Positions 3,684 to 35,645 of a stretch of 35,645 nucleotides of DNA are shown here, in pieces. The position numbers were made by a program, and so were the translations under genes. Source of the stretch: a virus. The notes under the pieces were generated by a model. It saw nothing but the letters and a program-made list of their open reading frames with translations. It made no database searches and had not been told where the DNA came from. The stretch is taken from positions 1-35,645 of the IMG/VR virus record IMGVR_UViG_3300045988_027218; one strand, given 5' to 3'. How positions within the stretch are numbered: position 1 is the stretch's first letter; the number at the start of each line of letters is the position of its first letter.

Positions 3684-3812
3684 ATACTAGACAAAAGAAT
3701 TTTTGAAGCCTTAGGCGAACTACAAAAGAAAGGCTATGAGCTTTCAGAATTTCATCAAGGATATATCGCTTGTATCTTAGATGAATCGAAAAGAGGTGAG
3801 AAGCATGACTAG
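3684..3812 (+). CDS. small hypothetical protein (42 aa) with a putative ATA start
   Basis: It fills an otherwise empty 180-bp gap. SD AGAGGGTG (3671-3678) is followed by 5 nt and then ATA. The frame opens at TGA 3678-3680. Its end overlaps the next start (ATGACTAG). Not in the ORF track because it lacks a canonical start. Confidence 0.35.
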   Translation: MLDKRIFEALGELQKKGYELSEFHQGYIACILDESKRGEKHD

Positions 3813-3984
3813 AACATATTTCGTAACCTGCGACGTAACTGCAAATGTTACGTTCGAGGTTGAAGCACATGACAGTGCAGAAGCAAAAGAAATTGCGAAT
3901 CAATTAAACGTAAGAGATTTGCAAGAAGTAAATCAAATTAACACTTGTGAATCTAGAATAGAGGTGTATGAAAGTGATTATTGA
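3805..3984 (+). CDS. hypothetical protein
   Basis: ATG 3805 follows SD AAGAGGTGA. The ORF-track start 3781 has no SD. Confidence 0.6.
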   Translation: MTRTYFVTCDVTANVTFEVEAHDSAEAKEIANQLNVRDLQEVNQINTCESRIEVYESDY

Positions 3985-4225
3985 TTATAAAGCGTTGCTT
4001 AATAAAGATGATTTAGTTTCATTGTTTGATTGGGATGTTTTTCAAGAGCAAACTCAAAGAAACTACGCTCACAAGGTAATGAAATCGGTTCGTGAACAAT
4101 ACAAAAAAGACAATGGAATTGATTGGAAAGACACGTTTATTTATAAGAATGTATCACAAAATGTTATTCCAACAGAAACATTTTTAAAGTGTTGTCCGGA
4201 GTTCAGAAAAAGCTTTAGGAGGTAA
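3968..4225 (+). CDS. hypothetical protein
   Basis: 85-aa ORF overlapping the previous stop. The alternative GTG 3974 is better spaced from GAGGTG. Confidence 0.6.
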   Translation: MKVIIDYKALLNKDDLVSLFDWDVFQEQTQRNYAHKVMKSVREQYKKDNGIDWKDTFIYKNVSQNVIPTETFLKCCPEFRKSFRR

Positions 4226-4227
4226 AC

Positions 4228-4458
4228 ATGGAAGATATAAGAATGAATGCAATACAAGAAGATGAAATGGAGTTAAGCATTTATCCATTTAATCCAAAAA
4301 GAAGATATTTAAGCAAGGAAGAAAAAGAACTTATTAGAGAACAAAGGTATCAAAAAAGAATCACAACGTGTGTGAATATTCTGTTATTCGCAACAATTAT
4401 GATTCTATTAATGACTATTTCATGTTTTGGTAAAACGTATGCAATGTTATTTCAATAA
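4228..4458 (+). CDS. hypothetical protein with a C-terminal TM helix
   Basis: SD TAGGAGGT upstream. The C-terminus ITTCVNILLFATIMILLMTISCF is hydrophobic. Confidence 0.6.
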   Translation: MEDIRMNAIQEDEMELSIYPFNPKRRYLSKEEKELIREQRYQKRITTCVNILLFATIMILLMTISCFGKTYAMLFQ

Positions 4459-4558
4459 AAAAAGAGGTGCGCACTCGACAAAAGCACGCACACACAAGAA
4501 ATGACGTTCTTAAAATAAGAACACATACATTATAGCAGATTAAAAGGAGAAACGGAAG

Positions 4559-5221
4559 ATGGAAGAAAAGAAAAGCATTTATGAGAAACTTTCATTAATT
4601 CAGAATGAAATGAAAGTCGGAAAAAACAATTACAACAAATTTGGGAAATATAACTATCGTTCTGCCGAAGATATTCTTGCAGAAGCTAAAAAGATTTGTT
4701 GCAAGCATAGAACAACATTAATTCTTACAGATGATATTAAAGTTGCAGAAGCTAGATATTACGTTGTAGCAAATGCAATATTAATGGATTGGGATTCTCA
4801 TATAACGGTAGAGGTTACCGCAATGGCTAGAGAAGAAGAAAATAAAAAAGGTATGGACGCTTCACAAGTTACAGGTTCATGCAGTTCATATGCTAGAAAA
4901 TATGCGTTAAATGGTTTATTCAATTTAGATGATACAAAAGACGCAGATACAGACGAGCAACATGAAGCAATTCAAAATGCACAAACAAAACAACAGAAAG
5001 CCGAAAAAAATGACAAGTTAGATGAAATTCGTATGCGTTGTTTTAAAGCACAAAATGAATTACAGAAGCTAGGAATTGATACGCATTCAGAAGCGTTTTG
5101 TGAGCATTTAAAAGCCGAATATAAAATCAGCTCACAAGATATTCCTAATCTAAATGGAAACGGTCTAGTGGCATTAATTAAAGCATATGGAGCTATTTAC
5201 AAAGAAAATGCGAAAGCATAA
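4559..5221 (+). CDS. erf: ERF-family single-strand annealing recombinase
   Basis: The N-terminus SIYEKLSLIQNEMKVGKNNYNKFGKYNYRSAEDILAEAKK and the later SYARKYALNGLF are typical of Erf (recalled family pattern). SD AAAGGAGA upstream. Confidence 0.8.
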   Translation: MEEKKSIYEKLSLIQNEMKVGKNNYNKFGKYNYRSAEDILAEAKKICCKHRTTLILTDDIKVAEARYYVVANAILMDWDSHITVEVTAMAREEENKKGMDASQVTGSCSSYARKYALNGLFNLDDTKDADTDEQHEAIQNAQTKQQKAEKNDKLDEIRMRCFKAQNELQKLGIDTHSEAFCEHLKAEYKISSQDIPNLNGNGLVALIKAYGAIYKENAKA

Positions 5222-5234
5222 GGAGGAAAGAAAA

Positions 5235-5540
5235 ATGGAATTAGTAAACGTAACAAATGGACAAATTGAAATTCAACAGGAAGCATTAAGTAAATTAAAA
5301 TCATTTCAAGAATACAAAAAGGAAATGGACAAATTAGAAAAAGATATTAAGAAAAATATCTTAGAAGCTATGGAAAATAACGGTATCAAATCATTTGAAA
5401 ATGATGTTGTGAAAATTTCGTATGTAGAACCATACACAAGAACAACTATTGATACAAAGTTAGTGAATGAATTAGGTCTTATGCACCAATTATCAAAGGA
5501 AACACAAGTTAAATCTAGTGTTAAGGTAACTTGGAAATAA
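5235..5540 (+). CDS. hypothetical coiled-coil protein downstream of Erf
   Basis: ATG 5235 follows SD AAGGAGGA. The ORF-track start 5187 lies inside erf. Confidence 0.65.
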   Translation: MELVNVTNGQIEIQQEALSKLKSFQEYKKEMDKLEKDIKKNILEAMENNGIKSFENDVVKISYVEPYTRTTIDTKLVNELGLMHQLSKETQVKSSVKVTWK

Positions 5541-5827: not shown

Positions 5828-5836
5828 GAGGTAAAT

Positions 5837-6067: not shown

Positions 6068-6615
6068 AAACAAAATTAATAGGTAATTTCATCAGAAAAT
6101 CAAGAAATGAAGATGGAAACCTAGAAATAACATTTGAATTGACTGAGCCAATATACGAATCATACGCTCAGACACTCGAAAAAGGGGCATATAGCGTGAT
6201 TATAGATTCTGTTAAGCATTTACGTACTAACAATCAGAATCGGCTTATGTGGGCATTAATCAAGGAAATAAGTGAAAACGAAAACGCAAGCTACAACGAT
6301 ACATGGGATATGTATTGCGAATTCTTGAGAATGGCAAAAGCGTTATATACATATGTTTCAGTTTTGAAAGATGGTGTTGATTCGTTGGCTCAAGCTCATG
6401 GAGTTAGAGCAGTTCAAATATTGGGCACTGAGATAAGAGACAATGGAAATGAATTTGTGAATTGTAGATTGTTTTTGGGTAGCTCACAAATGGACACAAA
6501 ACAAATGGGAGTCTTAATTGATTGCATATTAGATTATGCAGAACAATTAGGAATCAGTACCCAATATTATTTAGATAAAGGAATCAAGGTGGAAGAAAAT
6601 AAAGTTTGTAATTAA
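6064..6615 (+). CDS. NinB/Orf-like recombination mediator
   Basis: RTNNQNRLMWALIKEIS...TWDMYCEF and GSSQMDTKQMGVLIDCILDYAEQLGI parallel lambda NinB motifs (RSLDQNRKLWACLGDVS...ESWKCVF; STSRMRVGEFAELLELIQAFGTERGV), recalled from memory. Confidence 0.55.
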   Translation: MKTKLIGNFIRKSRNEDGNLEITFELTEPIYESYAQTLEKGAYSVIIDSVKHLRTNNQNRLMWALIKEISENENASYNDTWDMYCEFLRMAKALYTYVSVLKDGVDSLAQAHGVRAVQILGTEIRDNGNEFVNCRLFLGSSQMDTKQMGVLIDCILDYAEQLGISTQYYLDKGIKVEENKVCN

Positions 6616-6976
6616 AGGAAAACTAGATGGATTGAATGAATATATTAATGCTTGCAGAACGAACCGCTACAAAGGAGCAGAAATGAAGAAAAAGAATGAG
6701 CGATTAGTTATGGCTTATATCTTACAGGCAGTAAACTTTGGTGAAATTTACGAAGTTAAGAACTACCCAATTAAATTAAATATTAATTGGTATGAACCGA
6801 ATTCAAGGCGTGATGTTGATAACGTAACATTCGCAACTAAATTCATTCAAGATTCATTAGTTAGAACAGGAATACTTGAGGATGATTCAAGGAAATACAT
6901 TAATCAAGTGAATCATTCAGTATTTACAGATAAACAAAATCCAAGAATAGAGGTAGAAATTCTAGGGGGTGATTAG
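6599..6976 (+). CDS. rusA: RusA-family Holliday-junction resolvase (putative ATA start)
   Basis: (M)KFVIKGKLDGLNEYINACRTNRYKGAEMKKK...NWYEPNSRRDVDNVTFATKFIQDSLV is the RusA pattern. The conserved N-terminus lies upstream of the ORF-track TTG 6632. There is no in-frame ATG/GTG/TTG after stop 6572. SD AGGTGG (6587-6592) is followed by 6 nt and then ATA 6599. Confidence 0.75.
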   Translation: MKFVIKGKLDGLNEYINACRTNRYKGAEMKKKNERLVMAYILQAVNFGEIYEVKNYPIKLNINWYEPNSRRDVDNVTFATKFIQDSLVRTGILEDDSRKYINQVNHSVFTDKQNPRIEVEILGGD

Positions 6977-7709
6977 AATAGCAGAACTAAAGAAAAGCCT
7001 ACAAAGTGGGTATACACACGTTAACAATGAAATATTTCACGATAGAGAACTATCCTATAAAGCAAAAGGCTTGTTTTGCCAAATGTTAAGCCTTCCGGAT
7101 AATTGGGACTTTAAGGAAAACAGTATTAAAGCATTAGCTACAGATGGAATATCAAGTGTTCGTTCCGGGTTAAAAGAATTAATGAATAAAGGATATTTAA
7201 TTCGTGAACCTATTAGAGAAGGTAATTTAATTGTTGATTGGCAATATACATTAATAGACAATCCTCGGAATTTAGAAAATCTAAAAATAGAAAATCTAAA
7301 AATAGAAAATCTAAAATTAGAAAATCTAAACCCTATTAAATTAAATAATAATTCAACTAAAAATGAATTAAATAAAAATAATATTAATGTATGTACGCAC
7401 AAACATAAATACGGAGAATATTCACACGTGTTACTTACAGATAAAGAACACACACACCTATTAGATTTATATGGTGATTCATTAGATGAGCATATAAAGA
7501 TATTAGATGAGTACATTGAAACAAGTGGAAAGAAATACAAGAACCATTCATTAGTACTACAAAAGTGGGTACATGATGAATGGATGAAAAGAAACAAAGA
7601 TAAGCCTATCACACTTGATTCAAAGTTTTATGCAGAGCAAAGCACAAAGACAGATAAAGAAGTACAAGATGAATTTAATAGGCTTAGAGCACAATTATTT
7701 GGAGCATAG
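6969..7709 (+). CDS. phage replisome organiser / replication initiator (N-terminal wHTH, DnaD-like C-terminus)
   Basis: The N-terminus YTHVNNEIFHD..LSYKAKGLFCQMLSLPDNWDF and the C-terminus VLLTDKEHTHLLDLYGDSLDEHIKILDEYIETSGKKYKNHSLVLQKWV match recalled replisome-organiser families. The gene contains iterons. Confidence 0.75.
   Translation: MIRIAELKKSLQSGYTHVNNEIFHDRELSYKAKGLFCQMLSLPDNWDFKENSIKALATDGISSVRSGLKELMNKGYLIREPIREGNLIVDWQYTLIDNPRNLENLKIENLKIENLKLENLNPIKLNNNSTKNELNKNNINVCTHKHKYGEYSHVLLTDKEHTHLLDLYGDSLDEHIKILDEYIETSGKKYKNHSLVLQKWVHDEWMKRNKDKPITLDSKFYAEQSTKTDKEVQDEFNRLRAQLFGA
7273..7332 (+). repeat. four tandem 15-bp iterons (TAGAAAATCTAAAAA)
   Basis: Units at 7273, 7288, 7303 and 7318; the last two each differ slightly. 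They encode NLKIENLKIENLKLENL within the initiator gene. Confidence 0.85.
7273..7395. other. putative phage origin of replication (iterons plus an AT-rich tract)
   Basis: The iterons are followed immediately by a very AT-rich stretch (7333-7395). This is the same architecture as lambda ori within gene O. Confidence 0.55.
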
Positions 7710-12388: not shown

Positions 12389-12406
12389 GAGGTGGCACTA
12401 ATAGAA

Positions 12407-12595
12407 ATGAATTATGAAGAAAGGATTAAAGAGTTAATTTCTAAGAATAACAGATTAGGAATGGCGAACATTGAGCTTAATCAGACTTTAAAAGAAAGAA
12501 ATGCAACAATTCATAATCAAACACACGAGATTAATAGATTAAAAAATAAAGTTGGCGAATTAGAAAATAGATTAATGAGGATGTATACATCATGA
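12407..12595 (+). CDS. hypothetical coiled-coil protein
   Basis: ATG 12407 is downstream of AGGAGGTGG. The ORF-track GTG 12392 lies inside the SD. Confidence 0.55.
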   Translation: MNYEERIKELISKNNRLGMANIELNQTLKERNATIHNQTHEINRLKNKVGELENRLMRMYTS

Positions 12596-12918
12596 GTACA
12601 TATGAAGAAGTTAAAAAACATTTTCTATGCGAATGTCAATCTTATACATACTATGAGCAAAAGATAGCAGAGCTACAAAGGGATGAAGCAATTTATCCTT
12701 TAAAAGCCGAGCTATTCTTGGCTCATGCAGATTATGCAAGAAGAATGAATTATGTAAAAGACAAATTAAGCCAACTTGATGATACGACTAGAGCCATGAT
12801 TGAGTATAGATATATAAAGGGATTCAGTGCAGAAAAAACATCTAATATTGTAGGTTATGCACGAGAAGAGATTCCAAGAAAAATAAATAAGAACTTGAAG
12901 AAAGTGCTCACAATGTGA
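12592..12918 (+). CDS. small sigma-70 region-4-like / ArpU-RinA-type late transcription regulator
   Basis: The C-terminal HTH LSQLDDTTRAMIEYRYIKGFSAEKTSNIVGYAREEIPRKINKNLKKV is sigma region-4-like. It is the last gene before the packaging and late module. Confidence 0.55.
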   Translation: MSTYEEVKKHFLCECQSYTYYEQKIAELQRDEAIYPLKAELFLAHADYARRMNYVKDKLSQLDDTTRAMIEYRYIKGFSAEKTSNIVGYAREEIPRKINKNLKKVLTM

Positions 12919-12927
12919 GCATTTTTT
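12905..12927 (+). terminator. hairpin/palindrome TGCTCACAATGTGAGCA plus T6 (terminator and/or regulator site)
   Basis: A perfect 8-bp inverted repeat around one central base (12905-12921) is followed by TTTTTT. It overlaps the stop codon of the regulator gene. A near-identical palindrome occurs at 22586-22600. Confidence 0.55.
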
Positions 12928-12944
12928 CATGTAATAATTGTTTT

Positions 12945-13020
12945 AGCAGGATAGAGCAGTAGTAGCTCACTAGTCTTATTAGCTAGAGGTCGAATGGTGC
13001 AATTCCTTCTCCTGCAACCA
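12945..13020 (+). tRNA. tRNA-like gene, anticodon UAU (reads AUA), with initiator-tRNA-like identity elements
   Basis: 76 nt folds by hand as AGCAGGA-TA-GAGC-AGTAGTA-GCTC-A-CTAGT-CTTATTA-GCTAG-AGGTC-GAA(T)GG-TGCAATT-CCTTC-TCCTGCA-A-CCA. The anticodon TAT is at 12977-12979 and CCA is encoded. Initiator-like features are the A1xA72 mismatch, G2:C71, C3:G70 and A11:U24. Atypical features are a bulged T-stem, G55, no GG in the D-loop, and U37. Confidence 0.6.
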
Positions 13021-13102: not shown

Positions 13103-13127
13103 ACCGAGCGTTTGTCTCGGTTCTTTT
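13103..13127 (+). terminator. rho-independent terminator downstream of the tRNA unit
   Basis: Stem ACCGAG (13103-13108) / CTCGGT (13116-13121) followed by TCTTTT. Confidence 0.55.
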
Positions 13128-14563: not shown

Positions 14564-14905
14564 ATAGCAGAGAAACACGCAGGAGGACGCCCAAGAATAA
14601 AGATTGATTATGAAGCAGTTGAAAAGCTTGCTTCTATTGGATGTACTCAAGAAGAAATTGCAGATTTCCTAGGATGTTCGGTAAGAACATTATTAAGAAA
14701 TAGAAAGTTTTGTCAGACATATAAAAAAGGTATAAGCCACTCAAAAAGAAGTTTAAGACGTATGCAATTTGACAAAGCGTCAAAAGGGAATACGACCATG
14801 CTTATTTGGTTAGGTAAACAAATGCTTGGACAGAGCGAAAAGGTTGAGCAGACAATGACACATGAGATTGAGGACTTAACACCTTTGGCAGATTTATTAA
14901 AATGA
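14564..14905 (+). CDS. terS: terminase small subunit (HTH type), probable ATA start
   Basis: (M)AEKHAGGRPRIKIDYEAVEKLASIGCTQEEIADFLGCSVRTLLRN is a typical terS N-terminus. SD AGGGGGGA (14551-14558) is followed by 5 nt and then ATA 14564. The in-frame ORF-track ATG 14540 has no SD. Confidence 0.7.
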   Translation: MAEKHAGGRPRIKIDYEAVEKLASIGCTQEEIADFLGCSVRTLLRNRKFCQTYKKGISHSKRSLRRMQFDKASKGNTTMLIWLGKQMLGQSEKVEQTMTHEIEDLTPLADLLK

Positions 14906-16242: not shown

Positions 16243-17646
16243 ATAGAAACATCTAACACACGTAGACCGTGGTTTCAAAACTACCTTAACAAAAGAGGGT
16301 ATTATGTAGATACAAACGCAATTGAGATTATTGAATTGTGCAACAAATGGTATACAAATACCGAAACAGAATTTCATACGGCATACACATTAAATAATGA
16401 GGAATACACGCTAGATAAAACAGATTTTGCAAAGCGTTTATGCGAAGATGACGCAAACCTTATTGAAATCCTAGATATAAACGCAACAGAGGACAGTGCT
16501 ACAAATGACATTATTTCAGATATTCTAACGAAGAATAGATTTGATGTTATGTATAGGAAACAAGTTGAGCAAATGTCTGCAAATGGTACAGTAGGAGCTT
16601 ATGTGACGGTATCAAATGCCGAGATTTATGAAGATGGTACATTCAGTGGAGGAGAAATCAGAATCAACTATTGTGATTCAATGAATATCCTTCCATTAAC
16701 TGTTATCAATGATGAAATTGTGGAAGTTGCTTTCGTTGGAGTAAATTATGAGAAGTTAAAAAAAGTATATGTGATGGTCATGTTCTTAAAAGGACAAGAC
16801 GAAAGATATATTGCAGAAACACATTACTTCAAAGATACAGGCGAAGAAATAAAAGAGCGTGCTCAGATTGTTCAACTAGATGTTGTAAAGCCGTTTGCAA
16901 TTATGAGAAACGCAAAGGTAAACAACTTACAAATGCAAGGTTACGGCTTGCCGAAGATTTGGAGCGCAATTGCTCCTTTAAAAACAATTGATTTAACAAT
17001 GACAATGTGGAATCGTGATTTGTTGAAATCAGATAAAATCGTTCTTGTGAATGAAGCATTAATGCAGAAAGACGAGAATGGAAAGATTAAGATGAATCCA
17101 CAAATGAAAAAGATATTTGTTCAGTTAGGTAGAGACAAGTTACCGGAAGAAAAAGCTTTATGGCAAGAATACAATCCAACAGTTAGAACGGCAGAAGTTG
17201 TCCAATCGTTAGAAACTGCATTAAGTATCTTATCAATGATGTTTGGATTCGGTACAAAAAAATACACATTTGAAAGTGGAAGAATCGTAACGGCTACAGA
17301 ATATATCGGCGAAAACCAAGACGCTATGAAGGAAGTAAACTCACAACGTAAAGAATCTACCGCATATATTCAAGATATCATTCAAGCTATAGCATACTTC
17401 TACGAATTAACACAAGGCAGAAAGCTTAATATCAATTCATTAGACATTGCTATTGATTATGACGATACATACATTGAGGATAAGCAAAGCACGGCACAAG
17501 CGTTAAGAAATGACGCACTTACATTTGATATTCCAAGATTAAAGATTATGTATTTCATGAAACAATACGGATTCACAGAAGAAGAAGCAACGGAATTGTT
17601 GAATGAAGAAATTCAAGATGATGGAGAGGGGGATGACGAAGAATAG
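16243..17646 (+). CDS. portal protein (SPP1 gp6-like), ATA start
   Basis: The frame opens at 16240. SD AAGGAGGT (16230-16237) is followed by 5 nt and then ATA. The extension (M)ETSNTRRPWFQNYLNKRGYYVDTNAIEIIELCNKWYTN...FH matches the recalled portal N-terminus (GY.V......I..W..WY). The first canonical codon is TTG 16336. Confidence 0.8.
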   Translation: METSNTRRPWFQNYLNKRGYYVDTNAIEIIELCNKWYTNTETEFHTAYTLNNEEYTLDKTDFAKRLCEDDANLIEILDINATEDSATNDIISDILTKNRFDVMYRKQVEQMSANGTVGAYVTVSNAEIYEDGTFSGGEIRINYCDSMNILPLTVINDEIVEVAFVGVNYEKLKKVYVMVMFLKGQDERYIAETHYFKDTGEEIKERAQIVQLDVVKPFAIMRNAKVNNLQMQGYGLPKIWSAIAPLKTIDLTMTMWNRDLLKSDKIVLVNEALMQKDENGKIKMNPQMKKIFVQLGRDKLPEEKALWQEYNPTVRTAEVVQSLETALSILSMMFGFGTKKYTFESGRIVTATEYIGENQDAMKEVNSQRKESTAYIQDIIQAIAYFYELTQGRKLNINSLDIAIDYDDTYIEDKQSTAQALRNDALTFDIPRLKIMYFMKQYGFTEEEATELLNEEIQDDGEGDDEE

Positions 17647-18452
17647 CAACTACATATTTTCCATTCGTCTCAAGAAATGGCGATAGATTAGTATTATATG
17701 ACGCTTTCAGAAGATTGTTCTCAAGCTACTTTACAAATGGCGTGTTCGTAGATGATTCTAGTTCAGACCATTTAAGAGTTGAGAAGGCTCAAGGCTTAAC
17801 ACTTACAGTTAAGGCAGGACGAGCAAATATTAATGGAGCGTTCTATTGGCAGAAAGATGACGAAACCATCACACTAGAAAAGAATAGCGCTACTAAAAGC
17901 TACAATATTATTCTTAGATTGAATGATAATGACGCATACAGAAACATTACCTTAGTAGCAAGTGATATCAATGATGGAATCACAAGAAGTGATTCTATTT
18001 ATGATTTAGTATTAGCTACGGTAACAGTGACAGGCAATGTGAACGAAGTTAAAGGCTCAGATATTACTGATACAAGATTAGATTCTACACGTTGCGGAGC
18101 AGTTACAAGCACAATTAAAAGCGTACAATCGTTGGATTTATTCACACAGGTTACGGAGTTATTTAAGGAAATTAAAGCTCAGAATGAATCTGAAATGAAT
18201 GCAAATAGAACAGAATTTAATGATTGGTTTGAAACTGTAAAGGATACGTTAGACGCAAATACGGCAGGAAAACTATCGAACAGAATTTCAAACATTGAAA
18301 AGATGATTATGGAGAACCATTTCACCACAATTCTATTAACGGAAGATGGAACACTAGTAGATGAGAATGGTCATGAGATTCTAGCCGATTGGGCGTATGA
18401 AGTTGATAAAGGTGAAGTAGGCAAAGATTGGACTTACAAGGTGAAATCATGA
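17643..18452 (+). CDS. tail-fibre/receptor-binding-type structural protein, ATA start
   Basis: (M)ATTYFPFVSRNGDRLVLYDAFRRLFSSYFTNGVF...LTLTVKAGRANINGAFYW. ATA 17643 overlaps the portal TAG stop (gaATAGca), with the GAGAGGGGGA SD 9 nt upstream. The ORF track starts at TTG 17715. Confidence 0.6.
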   Translation: MATTYFPFVSRNGDRLVLYDAFRRLFSSYFTNGVFVDDSSSDHLRVEKAQGLTLTVKAGRANINGAFYWQKDDETITLEKNSATKSYNIILRLNDNDAYRNITLVASDINDGITRSDSIYDLVLATVTVTGNVNEVKGSDITDTRLDSTRCGAVTSTIKSVQSLDLFTQVTELFKEIKAQNESEMNANRTEFNDWFETVKDTLDANTAGKLSNRISNIEKMIMENHFTTILLTEDGTLVDENGHEILADWAYEVDKGEVGKDWTYKVKS

Positions 18453-23276: not shown

Positions 23277-24146
23277 ATAGCAAATCAAATTGCATTAGCT
23301 AAAACGTATGTTTCAAATTTAGATGAAGTTTACAAGTTAGCTTCAGTAACAGGCGATTTAAACGCCGACGCTACAATGGTAAGAGCCGGAGCAAACGCAA
23401 AAGAAATCATCTATCCACAAATTTCTGTTAAAGGTTTAGGAAACTACGATAGAAATAGCGGATATACATCAAATTCAGTTAAATTAGAATGGAAGACTGC
23501 TACATTTGATTACGATAGAGGAACAAAGATTGCAGTTGATACACAAGATAACACAGAATCAATGAATATTGCATTCGGTATGGCAGGAGCGGAATTAATG
23601 CGTACAAAGGTTGCGCCGGAAGCAGACGCTTACACATTCGCTAAGATTGCCGGAACAACAGGTATCACAAAGGTTTCAGAAGATTATACAGGTGCAGAAG
23701 AGTTCTTGAGCGCATTATTAACGGCTATCACTAAAATGGATGAGGATGAAGTTCCTAGCGAACAACGTATCTTGTATTCAACACCAACATTATTGAATAG
23801 CGTTAAGGCATTGGACACTTACAAATCTCGTGAAGCTTTACAAGGATTTGCAAAGGTTGTTCCTGTACCTTCAACACGTTTCTATACAAAGATTAAATTG
23901 TTGAGCGGAGCAGATACAGAAACAGATGGTGGATTCACTAAAGCGGAAGATGGGCACGCAATTAACTTCTTAATTGTTCACAAGCCTGCCGTTATGAAGT
24001 GGGATAAACACACTGTTTCAAATGTAATTCCTGCAAGCAATAACATTGAATCAGATTCAGATGTATTGAAGTATCGTAAGTATGGAATCGTTGATGTATA
24101 CGCAAATAAGGTGGCAGGTATCTACTTATCTGCTAGTGCGAAGTAA
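23277..24146 (+). CDS. major capsid protein, ATA start
   Basis: The frame opens at 23274. SD AAGGAGGA (23262-23269) is followed by 7 nt and then ATA. The extension (M)ANQIALAKTYVSNLDEVYKLASVTGDLNADAT precedes the first ATG (23376) and matches the recalled capsid N-terminus (...Y...LDEVYK.as.t..L). Confidence 0.8.
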   Translation: MANQIALAKTYVSNLDEVYKLASVTGDLNADATMVRAGANAKEIIYPQISVKGLGNYDRNSGYTSNSVKLEWKTATFDYDRGTKIAVDTQDNTESMNIAFGMAGAELMRTKVAPEADAYTFAKIAGTTGITKVSEDYTGAEEFLSALLTAITKMDEDEVPSEQRILYSTPTLLNSVKALDTYKSREALQGFAKVVPVPSTRFYTKIKLLSGADTETDGGFTKAEDGHAINFLIVHKPAVMKWDKHTVSNVIPASNNIESDSDVLKYRKYGIVDVYANKVAGIYLSASAK

Positions 24147-25823: not shown

Positions 25824-26330
25824 ATAGCAACTCAAGGAACTGAAGTAAATACAGGACAGACAGTCAAGAAGTATATGATTGGATTGTTCTTACAAATGGG
25901 AGAAGGTTACAAGCGAATTAAGAAATCTACAACTTTAGATATTTCATTTAACAGTGAAACTGAAACGTATGACTTTATCGCAGATAAGAACCCAACCGAA
26001 TCATTAAAGAGTTATTCACCTCAGATTTCGCAAGATTTAACAATGATTAAAGGCGAAGATGACTTTGAATATATTTACGAACAAATGATGAAGTCCGTAC
26101 CAAACAATGAAGAAGTAAATACAAAAGCTTTACTTGTATTCATGTTTGACGGAGACAAAACAAAAGGATACAAGGCGTGGGAAGTTGACGCTAAATTGAT
26201 TTTCGATACGTTAAGTGGTGTTGATTCAAAAATCAATTTCAACATTAACTTTGCAAGCGATATTCGTGTCGGTGTTGCAAAGGTAGCAGATGGAACAGTA
26301 ACCTTCACAGAAGGCACATCAGAAGTATAA
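25824..26330 (+). CDS. major tail protein, ATA start
   Basis: SD GAAAGGAG (25808-25815) is followed by 8 nt and then ATA. The product begins (M)ATQGTEVNTGQTVKKYMIGLFLQMGEGYKRIKKSTTLDISFNSETETYDFIADKNPT. The initiation region TTAATTAATAGCAA is identical to that of the capsid gene. Confidence 0.75.
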   Translation: MATQGTEVNTGQTVKKYMIGLFLQMGEGYKRIKKSTTLDISFNSETETYDFIADKNPTESLKSYSPQISQDLTMIKGEDDFEYIYEQMMKSVPNNEEVNTKALLVFMFDGDKTKGYKAWEVDAKLIFDTLSGVDSKINFNINFASDIRVGVAKVADGTVTFTEGTSEV

Positions 26331-27291: not shown

Positions 27292-29871
27292 ATATCAGAC
27301 GGAACATTAAAGTTTGATACAAAGATAGATACAAGTGGTCTTGAAAATGGTATTAAATCGGTTAGTGATGTATCAAATAAAGCTACAAATGCTATTAAAG
27401 ATACTTCAAATGCGATAGATAAGTTAGGTTCTGAAGGTTCAAAAGCACCACCAAAGATTAAAAATAAACTTAAAGATTTAAATGAAGAGCAAAAGAATAC
27501 ACAAACAGAAACGCAAGAAACAGGTTCTAAATTTGATGTATTTAAACAAGTAGGAAACAGTGCCTTAGAATCAATTCAAGGTGGGTTTGATGGATTACTA
27601 GAGAAGATTCAAAATATTAGTCCGGAAGCAACTACAATCACTGAAACCCTAACAGGATTAGGCGTAGGAGGTGTTGTAGGCGTTACTGCCGTAGCAGGAG
27701 CTATCGGTGGAATGGAATTAGCAATTAAGACAGGTGTAAATCAAGCTACTGAATTAGATGACGCTATGGCTAAACTCCAAGCTCAGACAGGTGCTTCAAG
27801 CAATGAAATGAGCAAATTTAAAAACATTGCTCGTGATGTTTGGTCTAATAATTTTGGTGAAGATATTTCAGATGTTGCCGATATGATGGGCAGAGTCAAG
27901 CAACAAATGCAAGGCATAAGTGATGTTGACCTAAAGAACGTGACCGAGGATTTATTAACTTTAAGAGATACATTCGATATGGATGAGAATGAAACTCTTA
28001 GAGGTGCTCAACAATTAATGAAGCAGTTCGGAATCACTTCTCAAGAAGCTTTTGACCTTATGGCTACAGGTGCTCAGAATGGTTTAAACAAATCAGATGA
28101 GTTAGGCGACAACATTTCAGAATACTCCGGTAAATTCGCACAAGCAGGATATTCGGCAGATGAATATTTCCAATTAATGCAGAATGGATTAGATGGTGGA
28201 GCTTATAACCTTGATAAAGTAAATGACGCAATCAACGAAGTTACCACAAGGTTAGTTGATGGAACTATTGAAGGAGCTTTAGATAGTTTTGATACCAAGA
28301 CGCAAGATGTCTTTAAAGCTTGGCAAGAAGGAAGAGCAACTCAGAAAGATGTTGTAAATGCGATTGTAAAAGATATTTCAAAGACTACAAATGAACAAGA
28401 AAAGTTGAATAAATCGGCAACGGCTTTCGGTACAATGGGAGAAGATTTCAACGCCGGCTTTATTGAATCCTTAACAACGGTAGGAAATAAATATAAAGAT
28501 GTAGAAGGGGCAATGGATAAAGTCAAAGAAATTGCAAATGGTGGCTTAAAGAATGCTTTAAGTGGCTTAGGACGTGCATTTCTTGATTCATTTACTCCAA
28601 TAGGCGAACTTATTACCCCTATTCTTGCAGGTATCATCGGATTAATTACAGTAGCTATACAAGGTATTCAACAAGGATTTGTTAAAGTTGGTGATGTAAT
28701 TTCAAGTGTGTTAAGCAAGATTGATACAAGTGGAATTACAGAATTGACAAGTCAAGTTTCAGAGGTGTTAGCTCCTGCTTTTGATGAGGTCAGAAAAGCG
28801 ATTGACGAAATGAAAGTTGCTCTTGAACCTATTGCAAAAGAAATCTTAGGTAAAATTGGTAACGCAATTCAAAATGTTGTTAACCAAGCTCAAAAGATTC
28901 TTAGCGTTGTAGGACCACCGATTCTAGCAATCATTAAGAAGATTATTCAAACAGTTATCGGTATGACTCCTGTAATAACATCTATCCTTCAAGTAGTTGG
29001 AAGTGTGGTAAGTGGAATCATTTCATTTATAACTATGGTTGTGACGTATGTCGGAACTGCAATTGCAACAATACTAGGATTTATCATGCCTATTGTTCAA
29101 ATCATAGCTACAATCGTAGCGAATATTTGGTCTGTAATATTAACGGTTGCTCAGAATATTTGGAGTAAGGTTAGCGAAGTAGTTACTGCGATTATTGGAT
29201 TTGTAAGCAATTTATTTAAGACGGTTTCGGACATCATAAACAATATTTGGAGTAAGATTCAAGATTCCATGAACAAGGTAAGAGACAAGGTTCAAGGTGT
29301 TATTGATAATATCAATAAATATTTCAATAATGTTAAGAGTACTGTTTCAGATGTATTCAATGGAATTTGGTCTAAGGTACAAAGTGTAATGGACAATGTA
29401 GGGAATAAAATTTCAAATGTTCTACAAGGAATACAAAATGCATGGAGCGGTTTAAAAGGATTTGTAGGTGGTGTATTTGGTGGAATTGAAGGAGCAGTTA
29501 GTTCATTAGTTGGAAGTGTAAAAGGAATGGTAAATGGTGTTATCGGTGGCATTAACGGTGCAATCGGTATCATCAATAAGATTCCCGGTGTACATATCGG
29601 AAGGATTCCAAGATTGGAACGTGGTGGTGTATTAAAACGTGGACAAATCGGTTTATTGGAAGGTAATGGAGCAGAAGCAGTCGTACCATTAGAAAAAAAT
29701 AAAGCGTGGATTCGTGCCGTAGCTAAAGATATGGCTCAAATCATGCCTAGTGTAACCACAAATAACAACGGACAAACAATTAACTTCTACAATAAAGTTC
29801 AAAGTCCGGATGAAATCGCTAGAATGTTACGTATGCAAGCAAGATATGGATATGGAGGTGTAGTTCAATAG
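27292..29871 (+). CDS. tape measure protein, ATA start
   Basis: The frame opens at TGA 27289-27291, directly before ATA 27292. SD AAAGGAGGTGG (27273-27283) lies 8 nt upstream. The 140 codons (M)SDGTLKFDTKIDTSGLENGIKSV... precede the first ATG (27712) and form a typical TMP N-terminus. The protein has a long helical/hydrophobic core with repeated NIWSK motifs. Confidence 0.85.
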   Translation: MSDGTLKFDTKIDTSGLENGIKSVSDVSNKATNAIKDTSNAIDKLGSEGSKAPPKIKNKLKDLNEEQKNTQTETQETGSKFDVFKQVGNSALESIQGGFDGLLEKIQNISPEATTITETLTGLGVGGVVGVTAVAGAIGGMELAIKTGVNQATELDDAMAKLQAQTGASSNEMSKFKNIARDVWSNNFGEDISDVADMMGRVKQQMQGISDVDLKNVTEDLLTLRDTFDMDENETLRGAQQLMKQFGITSQEAFDLMATGAQNGLNKSDELGDNISEYSGKFAQAGYSADEYFQLMQNGLDGGAYNLDKVNDAINEVTTRLVDGTIEGALDSFDTKTQDVFKAWQEGRATQKDVVNAIVKDISKTTNEQEKLNKSATAFGTMGEDFNAGFIESLTTVGNKYKDVEGAMDKVKEIANGGLKNALSGLGRAFLDSFTPIGELITPILAGIIGLITVAIQGIQQGFVKVGDVISSVLSKIDTSGITELTSQVSEVLAPAFDEVRKAIDEMKVALEPIAKEILGKIGNAIQNVVNQAQKILSVVGPPILAIIKKIIQTVIGMTPVITSILQVVGSVVSGIISFITMVVTYVGTAIATILGFIMPIVQIIATIVANIWSVILTVAQNIWSKVSEVVTAIIGFVSNLFKTVSDIINNIWSKIQDSMNKVRDKVQGVIDNINKYFNNVKSTVSDVFNGIWSKVQSVMDNVGNKISNVLQGIQNAWSGLKGFVGGVFGGIEGAVSSLVGSVKGMVNGVIGGINGAIGIINKIPGVHIGRIPRLERGGVLKRGQIGLLEGNGAEAVVPLEKNKAWIRAVAKDMAQIMPSVTTNNNGQTINFYNKVQSPDEIARMLRMQARYGYGGVVQ

Positions 29872-30737
29872 ATATCAATAAAGTAAGAGTTATTGTCCGA
29901 AGGGACGACGGCAAAGAATTTGAAATTGATAACAAAAGATGGAGAATACCATCTAGTGATGGTTTAGATGGATTTGATTATGTAGCACCTTCGTATACTA
30001 CCCAAGACAACGCATTCGGAAATGGTGCTAGATTAATCGGTTCACGTATTCCCACAAAAGAAAGAAGCGTGAAAGCTACCTTTAAAGGCTCACTAGAAGA
30101 AAAAAGAGAAGAAAGGGAGAAGCTACGGCGCTTCTTCCAATATTCTCATGTATTTGATGTGATAGTTGAGTACATGGGAGAAAAGAAATATTGCAGAGGT
30201 CGTTTATATGCATATAGCTTGCCTACTGTTAACATCTACAAAGATTTAGAGCTTAACTTTACAATTCTATGCACACAACCTTTATTGCTTTCATTTGATA
30301 ATTTTGCAAGGAATATCGCAGAAATTGGTGAAGGTTTAGCGTTCAACTTTGAAATACCGGAGACAGGTGTAAACTTTGGAACATTTACATTCGCTAGAGA
30401 AATCTATATTGACAATCAAGGCGATACAGAAACATACTGTAGAGCCGTTATTGAAGCATTTGGAGAGGTAACAAATCCGAAACTATTTAACAAGGATAAA
30501 TATATTCGTGTATTAGATACGCTACACAATGGTGATGTGTTAGAAATTGATTTAGTTTCTGAACCTATTTCGATAAAGAAAAATGGTGTGAATTGTATCG
30601 GCAAAGTTGATAGAACATCATCATTCAATGATATGACGATTCAGTTAGGCGAGAATATCATAGGATATACGGCAGACAATGGAGATACGAATCTAGCTTG
30701 CACGGTTTATTACAATGAAAGGTATTTAGGTTTATAG
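29868..30737 (+). CDS. distal tail protein (Dit), ATA start
   Basis: ATA 29868 overlaps the TMP TAG stop (caATAGat). SD GGAGGTG (29854-29860) lies 7 nt upstream. The 67 codons (M)DINKVRVIVRRDDGKEFEIDNKRWRIPSSDGLDGFDYVAPSYTTQDNAFGNGARLIGSRIPTKERS precede the first canonical codon, GTG 30069. Confidence 0.75.
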   Translation: MDINKVRVIVRRDDGKEFEIDNKRWRIPSSDGLDGFDYVAPSYTTQDNAFGNGARLIGSRIPTKERSVKATFKGSLEEKREEREKLRRFFQYSHVFDVIVEYMGEKKYCRGRLYAYSLPTVNIYKDLELNFTILCTQPLLLSFDNFARNIAEIGEGLAFNFEIPETGVNFGTFTFAREIYIDNQGDTETYCRAVIEAFGEVTNPKLFNKDKYIRVLDTLHNGDVLEIDLVSEPISIKKNGVNCIGKVDRTSSFNDMTIQLGENIIGYTADNGDTNLACTVYYNERYLGL

Positions 30738-31752: not shown

Positions 31753-31764
31753 GGAGTGAATTTA

Positions 31765-32271
31765 ATAGAAAAGAACAATGGAGGATTTAAACAAATAACA
31801 AGAAGTATGTATTTTCTAGACAAGATGAATGCAATGGGCGGTGTAGCAGTTGCCGTATTAACATATGTTTTAGGTGAACATTGGTATTTATTTGCATTCT
31901 TCTTATTTATGAATATTGTGGATTATATTACAGGGTGCATGAAGTCGGCGATTAATCACAAAATCAATAGCAATAAAGGATGGATTGGAGTCCTTAAAAA
32001 GCTAGGCTATTGGATTATGATTGTAGTTGCGTTCACATTCAGTGCATTCTTGGTAGAAATTGGAAAAATGCTAGGAATTGATTTTCATGTAACAACATTA
32101 GTAGGTTGGTTTGTATTGGCTTCTTTATGTATTAATGAAGTGCGTAGCATTATTGAGAACCTTGTACAATGTGGATATAGCGTGCCTAACGTATTAACTA
32201 AAGGATTAGAAGTAGCAGATAAACTCGTTAACGAAGAACAAGACAATGACGAATCAAGTACCTTGGAATAA
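31765..32271 (+). CDS. holin (phage_holin_4 / LL-H type); the long form possibly starts at ATA
   Basis: FFLFMNIVDYITGCMKSAINHKINSNKGWIGVLKKLGYWIMIVV is the recalled holin-4 pattern, with three hydrophobic segments. SD AAGGAG (31751-31756) is followed by 8 nt and then ATA 31765. The in-frame ATGs at 31807, 31825 and 31834 have no SD. The ORF-track GTG 31756 lies inside the SD. Confidence 0.7.
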   Translation: MEKNNGGFKQITRSMYFLDKMNAMGGVAVAVLTYVLGEHWYLFAFFLFMNIVDYITGCMKSAINHKINSNKGWIGVLKKLGYWIMIVVAFTFSAFLVEIGKMLGIDFHVTTLVGWFVLASLCINEVRSIIENLVQCGYSVPNVLTKGLEVADKLVNEEQDNDESSTLE

Positions 32272-32536: not shown

Positions 32537-32545
32537 GACATTTAT

Positions 32546-32574: not shown

Positions 32575-32614
32575 TGCTCATGAATATAATTAGGAGTGTA
32601 AAGAGGTGAGCGAA

Positions 32615-33246: not shown

Positions 33247-33270
33247 TTGCGTTGAAAGGAGGAAATATAG

Positions 33271-33882: not shown

Positions 33883-33920
33883 CTCGAAAGAGATTAGGCA
33901 ATAATAGCCTTTGGATTATA

Positions 33921-33949
33921 GGGTAGTCGAAAGGCTACCCATTTATTTT
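33921..33949 (+). terminator. hairpin with a GAAA tetraloop plus a T-rich tail
   Basis: GGGTAGTC-GAAA-GGCTACCC (33921-33940) followed by ATTTATTTT. Confidence 0.45.
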
Positions 33950-33968
33950 ATATAGGAGGAAAAGAAAA

Positions 33969-34388
33969 ATGATTAATAGTATAGCAACGGCAGTACAGAC
34001 AGTAGCAAACGGACAAAATGTATTATTTCCAACGGACAGAGTAAGAACGAAATCTTGTCAATGTGCATGTAAAGGTTGGCTTGCTCATGATGTAGGAAGT
34101 GGACTATTTACATTGACGAAACAAGGAATTTATGAAGTAGAATATACGGCAGACATCACAAGCGCAACGGTAGGAGTTGCTTCTTTAGAATTAGAACAGA
34201 ATGGAGAAGCGGTAGGAGGAACAGAATCTCTATATAACGTAGCTACTGCAAGTGCATACGGAAATGTAAGTGGAGTTACATTGATTCAAGTACCTTGTGG
34301 AGCTTCTTATACAATCACGCTAGGAAACAACAGTGGCTTAGATTTATCTGTTCAAAATGCAAATATCATCATTAAGAAATTAGCGTAG
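33969..34388 (+). CDS. all-beta protein, possibly a C1q/TNF-like (BclA C-terminal-domain-like) fold
   Basis: SD TAGGAGGA upstream. The pattern NVLFPTD...GLFTLTKQGIYEVEYTADI...LELEQNGEAVGG...VTLIQV...YTITLGNNSG..LSVQNANIIIKKL resembles C1q-like jelly-rolls. This is from memory and is weak. Confidence 0.55.
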   Translation: MINSIATAVQTVANGQNVLFPTDRVRTKSCQCACKGWLAHDVGSGLFTLTKQGIYEVEYTADITSATVGVASLELEQNGEAVGGTESLYNVATASAYGNVSGVTLIQVPCGASYTITLGNNSGLDLSVQNANIIIKKLA

Positions 34389-34395
34389 GTGTATC

Positions 34396-34833
34396 ATGCA
34401 AGAGGTTAGAAAAAGGAATCTAGACCTCTTAACCGAAGCAATGAGAGGACTAGAAAAAGGATACAATGATTTAGACTTTAGAGTTATGAGCCAAGCTTTA
34501 GACAACATCAAAGACATTGATACAATACTAGCTATGAGTGATGGAAGAACGGCTATAAATTCATTAAGAACAAATGACACCAATATTGAAGGAAAGGAAA
34601 TTGATGACAATATCGCATTGATGAATAGCCATTTTAGAAAATACATAGAAGCAAAAAAAGAATATCGAAAAGATAACAATGAAATAGATAAGCGAAATTC
34701 TATTCGTGAGTTAGAAGCTTTTTTGAGCGCTATGTATGGAATCTTAGAAGAAATGAAAACGTCTAGCGACTTTCAAGAAGAAAGAGAAATGGTAAGAGAT
34801 AAATTAAGAGAAATGTTCTCTGTATATCAGTGA
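34396..34833 (+). CDS. helical hypothetical protein
   Basis: SD TAGGTG upstream. 145 aa, charged and helical. It ends at the large hairpin. Confidence 0.6.
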   Translation: MQEVRKRNLDLLTEAMRGLEKGYNDLDFRVMSQALDNIKDIDTILAMSDGRTAINSLRTNDTNIEGKEIDDNIALMNSHFRKYIEAKKEYRKDNNEIDKRNSIRELEAFLSAMYGILEEMKTSSDFQEEREMVRDKLREMFSVYQ

Positions 34834-34834
34834 T

Positions 34835-34882
34835 AAAAATCCTCTTTTATGTGCTATAATTAGTACATAAAGGAGGATTTTT
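34835..34882 (+). terminator. long hairpin that acts as a terminator, sequesters the endolysin SD and contains an extended -10 box
   Basis: The 5' arm 34835-34852 pairs with the 3' arm 34865-34882 (18 bp, one G.U). The loop side adds a further C54-G63, T55-A62 and A56-T61. The 3' arm contains AAAGGAGGA. TGcTATAAT is at 34852-34860. Confidence 0.5.
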
Positions 34883-34883
34883 A

Positions 34884-35645
34884 ATAAATTATCAAAGTTT
34901 TAAAAAAGCCGTATTAGGCAAAGCATTCGATATTGACGGATATTATGGTGCGCAGTGTTGGGACGGATTCGCAAAGTACATGATTGATTTAGGATATAAA
35001 GCAATCCATTGTACAACAAGCAAATTTGTAAAAGACATTTGGAACAATCGAAAAGCAAATGGTATCTTGAACTATTGTAATGAGGTCTCAATTATGCAAC
35101 CGGGAGACATTGCGGTATTTAAAGAAGTAGCAGGATGGACTCCATACTCACATATCGCAATCTTTGATTCTGATATTGACGGAAAGCAAGGATGGTTCTT
35201 GGGTCAAAATCAAGGTGGAAAAGGTGGAGCATTCAATTTAATTAAATTGCCTTATTATGCAACATTTGATACTGCGTTTAGACCTAAATGTTTCGCAAAT
35301 ACAGGAGCAGTTAAACCAAGCATTCCACAACCTGTAGAAGCAATTGACCAAATCTTGCACGCAGGAAGCTACGTAACATCCGTACAAATGAAGATTGGCA
35401 ATCAAGGATTGAAACAAATCAATGGCGATTTATGCGCATACCTTGCACAATTAGGTGGTTGGTTTCCAATTCGTATGGTTGACAAAGTTCGCTATTCTGA
35501 TGGATATAATGATAACGTATTGCATACAACAAATGCCGTTGTCTATGTTACAAGAATTCGTGTTGATGAAGTCAACGTGCAAAAGAATCTTGTGAAAATC
35601 GGTGGAATTTGGGTAAATTGTAGCCCATTAATTGAAGTAGCATAA
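34884..35645 (+). CDS. endolysin: N-terminal CHAP amidase/peptidase plus a C-terminal SH3b-like wall-binding domain, ATA start
   Basis: (M)NYQSFKKAVLGKAFDIDGYYGAQCWDGFAKYMIDLGY...YSHIAIFD. The CHAP nucleophile Cys codon (34956-34958) lies upstream of the first ATG (34980). The frame opens at 34860 with no canonical start. SD AAAGGAGGA (34869-34877) is followed by 6 nt and then ATA. Confidence 0.85.
   Translation: MNYQSFKKAVLGKAFDIDGYYGAQCWDGFAKYMIDLGYKAIHCTTSKFVKDIWNNRKANGILNYCNEVSIMQPGDIAVFKEVAGWTPYSHIAIFDSDIDGKQGWFLGQNQGGKGGAFNLIKLPYYATFDTAFRPKCFANTGAVKPSIPQPVEAIDQILHAGSYVTSVQMKIGNQGLKQINGDLCAYLAQLGGWFPIRMVDKVRYSDGYNDNVLHTTNAVVYVTRIRVDEVNVQKNLVKIGGIWVNCSPLIEVA

Follow-up and report, generated by a model that had tools for sequence, protein, structure and literature searches.

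A putative phage-encoded initiator tRNA with a UAU anticodon and conserved ATA start codons in a temperate siphophage

Introduction

The 35,645-nt IMG/VR record IMGVR_UViG_3300045988_027218, analysed here in full and referred to as the window, carries about 60 genes of a temperate siphophage that is resident as a prophage; the names of its protein clusters give Holdemanella as the host. Many of these genes, including those for the portal, the major capsid protein and the endolysin, have a strong Shine-Dalgarno (SD) sequence followed by ATA, and their reading frames extend upstream of the first ATG, GTG or TTG. The locus raises the question of whether ATA is the true start codon of these genes and, if so, what reads it. 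Comparative evidence described below indicates that the ATA starts are real and under selection. The same phage has a transfer RNA (tRNA) gene with the anticodon UAU, the exact complement of AUA, and with features that mark it as an initiator by sequence and predicted fold. We consider it probable that this phage-encoded tRNA reads the starts as A-AUA.

Results

Genes that begin with ATA

A preliminary description of this DNA proposed nine to twelve ATA-initiated genes and listed twelve ATA codons (3684, 6599, 14564, 16243, 17643, 19086, 23277, 25824, 27292, 29868, 31765 and 34884). Its coordinates were all correct on re-reading of the sequence, and all twelve sites hold, each with a strong SD 4-10 nt upstream. 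The count was too low, as the sites at 6978 and 12401 had been overlooked, and ATA starts number up to 14 in the window, next to 43 ATG, 3 GTG and 2 TTG starts. The sites are listed below with the SD, its distance to the ATA and the state of the start codon among relatives. For each gene, 14-38 independent assemblies were compared, except that the endolysin start is covered by only 2 relatives; the ATA-bearing assemblies come from Logan, ENA, IMG/VR and RefSeq-derived sources. Position -1 is the base directly before the start codon.

3684..3812, + strand: small open reading frame (ORF) of 42 amino acids (aa); GGGTGA, 4 nt; A at -1; ATA in 29 of 29 relatives, with the reading frame conserved
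6599..6976, + strand: RusA resolvase; AGGTGG, 6 nt; A at -1; phrog_1682 aligned from residue 2, Pfam RusA; ATA in 33 of 33
6978..7709, + strand: replication initiator (DnaD-like); GGGGGTGA, 5 nt; A at -1; ATA in 31 of 31
12401..12595, + strand: small gene, probable ATA start; AGGAGGTG, 6 nt; A at -1; ATA in 27 of 27
14564..14905, + strand: small terminase (terS), probable ATA start; AGGGGGGA, 5 nt; A at -1; ATA in 14 of 14
16243..17646, + strand: portal; AAGGAGGT, 5 nt; A at -1; phrog_533 aligned from residue 22, upstream of TTG 16336; ATA in 33 of 33
17643..18452, + strand: head/fibre-like protein; phrog_1220 aligned from residue 3; ATA in 33 of 33
19086..19694, + strand: second fibre-like protein; AGGAGGA, 6 nt; residues 4-200 aligned to 4-195 of 197 in phrog_24103; 14 ATA, 6 ATG
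23277..24146, + strand: major capsid protein; AAGGAGGA, 7 nt; residues 2-288 aligned to 2-294 of 297 in phrog_422; ATA in 38 of 38 close relatives
25824..26330, + strand: tail tube; GAAAGGAG, 8 nt; 35 ATA (two displaced by one codon), 1 ATG
27292..29871, + strand: tape measure; ATA is the first codon past an in-frame TGA, first ATG 140 codons 3'; ATA in 35 of 35
29868..30737, + strand: Dit (distal tail); GGAGGTG, 7 nt; Pfam SPP1_Dit, phrog_33 aligned from residue 20; ATA in 30 of 30
31765..32271, + strand: holin; AAGGAG, 8 nt; Pfam Phage_holin_4_1; 26 ATA, 3 ATG; GTG 31756 lies inside the SD
34884..35645, + strand: CHAP endolysin; AAAGGAGGA, 6 nt; profile aligned from residue 2; ATA in 2 of 2 covering relatives

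The frame is open ahead of the first ATG, GTG or TTG for 31 codons in the portal gene, 33 in the capsid gene, 140 in the tape-measure gene, 67 in the Dit gene and 32 in the lysin gene. The catalytic cysteine of the endolysin is codon 25 (34956-34958) and precedes the first ATG at 34980, and the capsid and tail-tube genes have the initiation region TTAATTAATAGCAA in common; the preliminary description was right on both points. Three of its sites had been regarded as less certain. The holin start at 31765 is now supported by the ATA/ATG polymorphism, and the ORF at 3684 by its frame, which is conserved at 41-42 aa in 29 relatives, many of which have the SD GGAGGTGA 4 nt from the ATA. The terS start at 14564 is still ambiguous because the SD-less ATG at 14540 is likewise conserved. 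Of the two added sites, that at 6978 occurs among relatives as two alleles with different spacers and an invariant ATA, and the annotated GTG at 6969 lies inside the SD GGGGGTGA. At 12401 the string A ATA GAA ATG is invariant in 27 relatives, the spacer is variable, and a GTG at 12392 is missing from 4 relatives; the ATG at 12407, two codons 3', is an alternative start. At two junctions, 17643-17646 with the portal stop and 29868-29871 with the tape-measure stop, start and stop codons overlap as ATAG (ATA plus TAG), the ATA counterpart of ATGA.

Homology supports the extended N-termini. PHROG and Pfam profiles reach residue 2-4 of the ATA-extended capsid protein, both fibre-like proteins, RusA and the lysin; for the tail tube, Dit and portal the alignments begin at residue 10-22, always 5' of the first canonical codon. 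The preliminary description had reasoned that its case would fail if homologues began at the downstream canonical codons. They do not, and their ATG aligns with the ATA: thirteen distant capsid homologues from GTDB genomes (≤55% identity) start ATG-GCA/CCA-AAT (M-A/P-N-S-I), and the aligned codons of the window are ATA-GCA-AAT. The aligned capsid start codon is ATG in 57 of 57 distant relatives.

A scan for orphan SDs, defined as ORFs of at least 80 codons with an SD near the 5' end and no canonical codon, returned ATA at 9 ORFs of the window and other triplets at 1-4 each; many of the rival triplets, such as TTA, are codons that flank the same ATA sites. ATA was outside the 12 commonest triplets in the same scan of the 57 distant relatives and was not returned from the host flanks. 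The excess of ATA behind orphan SDs is more than chance.

Automated gene calls obscure these starts. The closest capsid proteins in a collection of 5.8 billion proteins are all N-terminally truncated calls of 256-283 aa compared with 289 aa here. The capsid cluster has 1224 member sequences, RefSeq Holdemanella entries among them, and truncated public records include WP_337526991.1, WP_288536604.1 and DAF49942.1. The called portal, tail-tube, Dit and tape-measure genes of the relatives L001-L003 are likewise shortened.

Selection on the start codon

The start ATA is invariant for the portal, first fibre-like, capsid, tape-measure, Dit and rusA genes (30-38 IMG/VR relatives per gene). Where the start varies, the sole variant is ATG (6 of 20 for the second fibre-like gene, 1 of 36 for the tail tube and 3 of 29 for the holin) and never ATT or ATC. 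Internal ATA codons of the same genes have ATT or ATC variants at 26 of 42 positions, and A/G polymorphism affects 58% of two-fold purine third positions. The genes that start with ATG keep it among relatives. Taken together, the restriction of variants to ATG, the drift of internal ATA codons and the fixation of the ATG genes indicate that ATA and ATG are both start codons and that selection maintains the state of each gene. Variants reading ATA at the gene designated g8987 also occur in relatives; these have no SD and are not starts.

Three unrelated sequencing runs have ATA at the capsid, tail-tube, tape-measure, portal, fibre and Dit starts, with neighbouring codons diverged. The second codon of the tape-measure gene, for example, is TCA, GCA or TCG among relatives that all have the ATA. 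Sister genomes have unrelated replacement alleles of terS and of the gene at 19945, and these too start with ATA; the two terS alleles are non-orthologous, and the terS of a second lineage described below (L211/L351) also has an ATA start. The habit is therefore a property of the lineage and not of particular genes.

The host does not appear to share it. None of about 36 distinct host genes beside the prophage, a small sample enriched in ribosomal genes, starts with ATA (Fisher p = 0.002 versus the phage), and canonical starts alone were seen in other elements integrated in this host. General use of ATA starts by the host, which the preliminary description had named as the circumstance that would make the phage starts unremarkable, finds no support in this sample. 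Relatives with capsid identities of 47-57% or 68%, which all belong to other hosts, start with ATG throughout.

A tRNA gene with the complementary anticodon

A tRNA gene, tRNA(UAU), lies at the head of the packaging and late region in what appears to be a transcription unit of its own:

12905..12921, + strand: hairpin with T-run, terminator-like, which ends the sigma-like gene 12592-12918 and sets the tRNA unit apart
12930..12938, + strand: likely extended -10 element TGTAATAAT, 6 nt before the tRNA 5' end, predicted from its sequence
12945..13020, + strand: initiator-type tRNA, 76 nt, CCA encoded (Rfam RF00005, 48 bits; gathering score 29)
13103..13121, + strand: terminator-like hairpin between the tRNA and the gene at 13146

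A simple promoter scan made no call at 12930..12938; relatives have TGnAATAAT or TGnGATAAT at that spot. ARAGORN called no tRNA in the window, and in three relatives it called the same gene as tRNA-Ile(tat), anticodon UAU. Rfam scores are 48-50 bits among the variants. The tRNA follows directly 3' of its upstream gene in 36 of 36 IMG/VR contigs that carry that gene (34 loci read from sequence, plus the offset loci L382 and L384, which were positive in a separate scan). Ten sequence variants occur over 36 fetched loci, with UAU in every copy.

The fold was examined on an alignment of 12 rows that comprised the clade variants, L211, L192 (high-GC, UAU), a tRNA(CAU) of the distant relative L060 and the E. 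coli initiator. The cloverleaf pairs 95% of the cells, 11 pairs have changed on both sides, and compensatory changes fall in the anticodon, acceptor and T stems; none of 500 shuffles matched the observed pairing or covariation score. The minimum-energy fold of tRNA(UAU) is the cloverleaf with base 1 unpaired. Judged by this covariation, the gene is a genuine tRNA gene.

Its class is indicated by individual positions. The tRNA(UAU) of the window has the anticodon loop CUUAUUA with U37, the mismatch A1·A72, the pairs G2:C71, C3:G70 and A11:U24, and A73. Position 1:72 is unpaired in 11 of the 12 rows (A·A, C·A or G·G), with the other acceptor pairs standard, and G2:C71, C3:G70, A11:U24 and G30:C40 are each present in 12 of 12. 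A1·A72 occurs in all 10 clade variants and C1·A72 in L211/L351; real initiator genes have C·A or U·U. Bacterial initiators have A11:U24 in the D stem and elongators Y11:R24, and the 1:72 mismatch excludes an initiator tRNA from EF-Tu. The host elongators in L019 have C11 or U11. The segments GAGCAG...GUAGCUCG...GAAGGUCG are essentially tRNAfMet sequence, as checked against 120 real initiator genes; the less derived variants share 75-78% identity with such genes, compared with 56-63% for host elongator tRNAs. Set against the initiator class, tRNA(UAU) has the 1:72 mismatch, G2:C71, C3:G70 and A11:U24 and lacks the three G:C pairs and the CAU anticodon. Set against an elongator tRNA-Ile(UAU), it has the anticodon and lacks the 1:72 pair, Y11:R24 and a purine at 37, three of the four features. 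The 1:72 mismatch, G2:C71 and C3:G70 are recognition determinants of the formyltransferase (PMC5389676). By these sequence characters, tRNA(UAU) bears the marks of a bacterial initiator.

The tRNA and the ATA starts are also linked by the base before the start codon. This is A at 14 of 14 ATA starts, compared with 21 of 47 canonical starts (Fisher p = 1.2e-4), and at the ATA starts of the replacement alleles and of the second lineage; it is complementary to U37 of the tRNA. In E. coli, complementarity between position -1 and position 37 of tRNAfMet, the A37U mutant included, raised translation (PMC10018350).

Occurrence in other lineages

The second, independent lineage, represented by L211 (the 10.3-kb contig L351), is 54% identical to the window in the capsid protein, 63% in the portal and 73% in terL. 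Its tRNA(UAU), located between a small regulator-like gene and terS, has C1·A72, U37, the loop CUUAUUA and normal D and T loops, and is more canonical than that of the window. In this lineage terS, the portal gene, the capsid gene and no fewer than two others start with SD plus A-ATA. Both lineages thus have the tRNA together with ATA starts.

No tRNA(UAU) was detected within the stretches fetched for the 57 distant relatives with ATG starts. Seven of them (L060-L065 and L102; capsid identity 53%) have an initiator-like tRNA(CAU), for example at L060 9260-9331, with a G1·G72 mismatch, A11:U24 and three G:C pairs, about 700 nt 5' of the capsid gene. These phage-borne initiators suggest a route by which a phage tRNAfMet underwent an anticodon change and the starts were re-coded, and the tRNA(CAU) is, from its sequence, a plausible ancestor of tRNA(UAU). 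An RNA of the 'skipping-rope' family (RF02924, 60.6 bits) adjoins tRNA(CAU), for example at L060 8839-8918.

Initiator-like tRNA(UAU) genes were also found on metagenome and viral contigs with no relation to this phage, namely L192/L209 (GC 0.64), L352 (GC 0.68), L355 (GC 0.41), L350/L357 (GC 0.27) and L354/L229. That of L355 is a textbook initiator save for the anticodon, with C1·A72 and three G:C pairs.

Genomic setting and neighbouring elements

The first ORF of the window is a host gene. Contigs with an empty site place the insertion between a 150-aa host gene (window 1-620) and ecfA, in the region rpoA-rplQ...ecfA-ecfT-truA-rplM-rpsI, with which the prophage is co-oriented (L018/L019 10001-10520; L017 1-1352). 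Because the prophage is co-oriented inside a highly transcribed ribosomal region, read-through transcription into it is conceivable. Megablast of the late region against INPHARED phages gave no match.

The gene order after the tRNA is the 13146 gene, a ParB-like gene, a TAGT-like gene and terS. Directly 5' of the tRNA, the gene 12592-12918 has a weak match to the sigma-factor PHROG 1740 (E = 5e-4), and the second lineage has, in the same position, a small gene with an apparent ATA start; this gene may be a late regulator tied to the tRNA unit. The region 13410-14562, just 5' of terS, holds a ParB-N-like gene and a gene resembling TET-associated glycosyltransferases (Pfam TAGT, phrog_842). In the corresponding place, L001 has a QueT-like gene with an apparent ATA start (819-1238). 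The TAGT-like and QueT-like genes hint at roles in the modification of DNA or nucleosides.

The Rfam model RF02276 matches a type II hammerhead ribozyme at 3599-3665 on the + strand (40.5 bits; gathering score 37), 19 nt 5' of the ATA of the 42-aa ORF; it is absent from the output of the whole-window Rfam scan at the gathering threshold. The hammerhead is also present in relatives (L118 5005-5071), with a second copy near the right end (L037 20752-20818).

Discussion

Alternative explanations

That the ATAs are non-functional, through sequencing or assembly artefact, decay of the prophage or A-to-I editing to an ATG sense, seems extremely improbable. G-to-A is the commonest substitution in AT-rich genomes, and the TAGT-like gene of the phage and the QueT gene of L001 at first hinted at a base-modification artefact. 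An artefact of DNA modification or sequencing is ruled out by the integrated prophages, by the many independent assemblies and by the occurrence of ATG in identical contexts (TTAATG GCA in L052). The systematic base-calling error that the preliminary description had allowed for is excluded as well, the ATAs recurring in assemblies from many samples in which neighbouring codons have diverged. Decay is ruled out by frames that are all intact and under purifying selection. The editing motif of TadA is UACG; the sites are off this motif, and no deaminase gene was seen. Artefact, pseudogenisation and RNA editing are thus excluded for practical purposes. A phage protein that relaxes initiation factor 3 (IF3) was also considered and dropped, as 30 early and late proteins scanned with PHROG and Pfam gave nothing translation-related.

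The remaining alternatives accept the starts and give the tRNA a different role. The host tRNAfMet(CAU) could read AUA through a C·A mismatch supported by an extended SD, with attenuated initiation sensitive to IF3 and growth, and the phage tRNA would then be an elongator supplement or irrelevant. The AUA starts of S. aureus infC, ccpN and citZ have extended SDs and reach 10-30% of AUG (PMC13009471), and AUA messenger RNA behaved like AUG messenger RNA in an optimised in-vitro context (PMC5499595). The sequence features that this explanation calls for are present here: AUA occupies the true start, the SD is extended and a canonical alternative is lacking. The SDs of ATA starts pair more strongly than those of canonical starts (mean -12.9 versus -9.4 kcal/mol, p = 6e-4), a comparison partly biased because strong SDs helped to choose the sites. 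It is also in keeping with this explanation that early ATA genes exist, that internal AUA is 2.3 times as common in the phage as in the host sample, and that ATG-start genes never exchange ATG and ATA, so that the two codons are not equivalent. We nevertheless regard it as rather unlikely, because it leaves unexplained the unpaired 1:72, G2:C71, C3:G70 and A11:U24 in all variants and lineages, the U37 together with an A at -1 of every ATA start, and the joint presence of tRNA and ATA starts in two lineages and their joint absence in relatives; it would also give the weakest start codons to the most abundant virion proteins, the capsid and tail tube. Phage tRNAs commonly match phage codon usage, and tRNA(UAU) might have a dual role or serve mainly as an elongator for a rare host codon, its initiator features being relics of an ancestral phage tRNAfMet. 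The related phages with an initiator-like tRNA(CAU) and the higher internal use of AUA in the phage fit this reading. It is an improbable explanation all the same, since the 1:72 mismatch bars EF-Tu and persists with differing bases (A·A, C·A) while the stems compensate, which indicates selection for the mismatch and not decay. U37 is, moreover, atypical of readers of ANN codons, elongators that typically have t6A37 (PMC2685093).

Proposed mechanism

Initiation by the phage-encoded tRNA would make AUA a second start codon for about 14 of the roughly 60 genes. The AUA-start genes would comprise virion and packaging genes (terS, portal, two head/fibre, capsid, tail tube, tape measure and Dit), the lysis genes for holin and endolysin, and the genes for RusA, the replication initiator and two small proteins. 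The decoder would be supplied by the phage itself as the initiator-type tRNA at 12945-13020, with the anticodon changed from CAU to UAU. The tRNA is predicted to be transcribed as its own unit at the head of the packaging and late region and then aminoacylated. The likeliest amino acid is isoleucine, because methionyl-tRNA synthetase needs C34 and the Bacillus isoleucyl-tRNA synthetase accepts UAU; a UAU tRNA-Ile is functional in B. subtilis (PMC3919564). Formylation is proposed because the determinants of the formyltransferase (1:72 mismatch, G2:C71 and C3:G70) are kept. The 1:72 mismatch would bar the tRNA from elongation, and the tRNA would enter the P site of the 30S subunit at an AUA positioned by the SD, where the cognate AUA:UAU pairing would be accepted by IF3. 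A fourth pair, between U37 and the invariant A at -1 of the messenger RNA, would strengthen the pairing to a quadruplet, A-AUA. Engineered anticodon-mutant initiator tRNAs do initiate at cognate non-AUG codons (PMC11744186).

In its full form, with which we side by a modest degree of confidence, this amounts to natural orthogonal initiation, in which tRNA(UAU) with U37 acts at the quadruplet A-AUA, probably with formyl-isoleucine in place of formylmethionine, and gives the phage a start codon of its own for replication, virion and lysis genes. Such a private channel could tie the translation of virion and lysis genes to the phage tRNA or free it from the host initiator tRNA. Both tRNAs might also contribute, with a basal level from the host tRNA that the phage tRNA raises. 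The preliminary description had called ATA initiation rare and inefficient in bacteria. The starts are indeed unusual, with none in the host sample, and 'inefficient' is probably wrong if the tRNA serves the sites.

Several observations weigh against initiation by tRNA(UAU). The anticodon stem in the window (A29:U41 / G30:C40 / U31·G39) departs from the three G:C rule, and in other variants the stem is G:C / G:C / U·G; G30:C40 has been reported as the most crucial pair of this stem, and natural au/GC/gu initiators occur in mycoplasmas (PMC5389676). The main-clade tRNA is odd in other respects, with a D loop lacking GG, the T loop UGCAAUU (G55) and a bulge in the T stem, and the single-sequence fold energy of tRNA(UAU) is no better than that of shuffles. 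The co-occurrence of tRNA and ATA starts covers two lineages; L001/L003, which have 86% identity and ATA starts, lie outside the tRNA comparison, and L394, a short contig from that lineage, has no room for a tRNA. No clear ATA starts were found near the tRNA(UAU) genes of L192/L209, L229, L350 and L352-L357, which are short, high-GC or SD-poor contigs. Some ATA genes, rusA and the replication initiator, are early, so that the logic of a pure 'late switch' does not fit. The AUA starts of S. aureus work without a special tRNA, and the phage tRNA is hence not strictly needed to account for translation. Internal AUA makes up 1.4% of phage codons and 0.6% in the host sample, a 2.3-fold difference that makes an elongator role conceivable. 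Finally, the expression, charging and formylation of the tRNA, and initiation by it, are steps that we infer from the features of the gene.

Relation to known systems

Taken as start codons, the ATA sites are like those of S. aureus infC, ccpN and citZ and the AUU start of E. coli infC, in which an AUA (or AUU) stands at the start behind a strong extended SD and the unusual codon is conserved (PMC13009471). Those AUA/AUU starts belong to single regulatory or housekeeping genes, where the host tRNAfMet decodes the start with lowered efficiency and a link to IF3, whereas the phage has about 14 such genes within 36 kb, its most abundant virion proteins among them, with a cognate tRNA alongside and an invariant A at -1. 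Taken as a system, the arrangement comes nearest to engineered orthogonal initiator tRNAs and, in concept, to stop-codon recoding by phages. Engineered initiator tRNAs (the amber tRNA-CUA and anticodon-mutant tRNAini) likewise combine an initiator body with a changed anticodon, and additional mutations tune their fold (PMC11744186; bioRxiv 10.1101/2021.05.25.445580). These are laboratory constructs; the phage tRNA is natural, conserved in dozens of genomes and matched by re-coded starts. The pairing of -1 with position 37 has a precedent in E. coli, where quadruplet complementarity raises initiation and A37U favours A at -1 (PMC10018350). The effect there is a modest modulation (A37, U at -1), unlike the natural U37 and invariant A at -1 of the phage, which together point to the fourth pair as an element of the recognition code.

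Stop-codon recoding with suppressor tRNAs was reportedly described by Borges et al. in 2022 in crAss-like, Lak and other gut phages. There, too, a phage tRNA alters the reading of a codon and the re-coded codons concentrate in structural and lysis genes. Stop-codon recoding acts in elongation, on stops, and the phage ATA system would reassign or add a start codon in initiation. Mitochondria also start at AUA (PMC11775629), with a single tRNAMet whose C34 is modified (f5C); the phage has a separate tRNA gene with UAU encoded genomically. The phage initiator tRNA(CAU) of L060-L065 and L102 shares the 1:72 mismatch and A11:U24 and differs in keeping CAU and ATG starts. In the literature search, no natural initiator tRNA with a UAU anticodon and no phage genes re-coded to ATA starts were found described.

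Implications

For annotation, gene callers shorten or miss ATA genes, and the endolysin loses its catalytic cysteine; tRNA finders label tRNA(UAU) as an isoleucine tRNA or miss it. If the proposed mechanism is true, an N-terminal isoleucine is predicted on the major virion proteins, and it becomes testable whether the -1:37 'fourth base pair' carries initiation specificity. The pair of tRNA and start codon would also be a ready orthogonal initiator for synthetic biology in Gram-positive bacteria. It would be the first natural dedicated non-AUG initiator tRNA paired with re-coded starts, the choice of start codon having so far been altered only in the laboratory according to the literature searched, and thereby the start-codon counterpart of phage stop-codon recoding. 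For the phage itself, such a system could keep its genes translatable when the host initiator tRNA is limiting or attacked.

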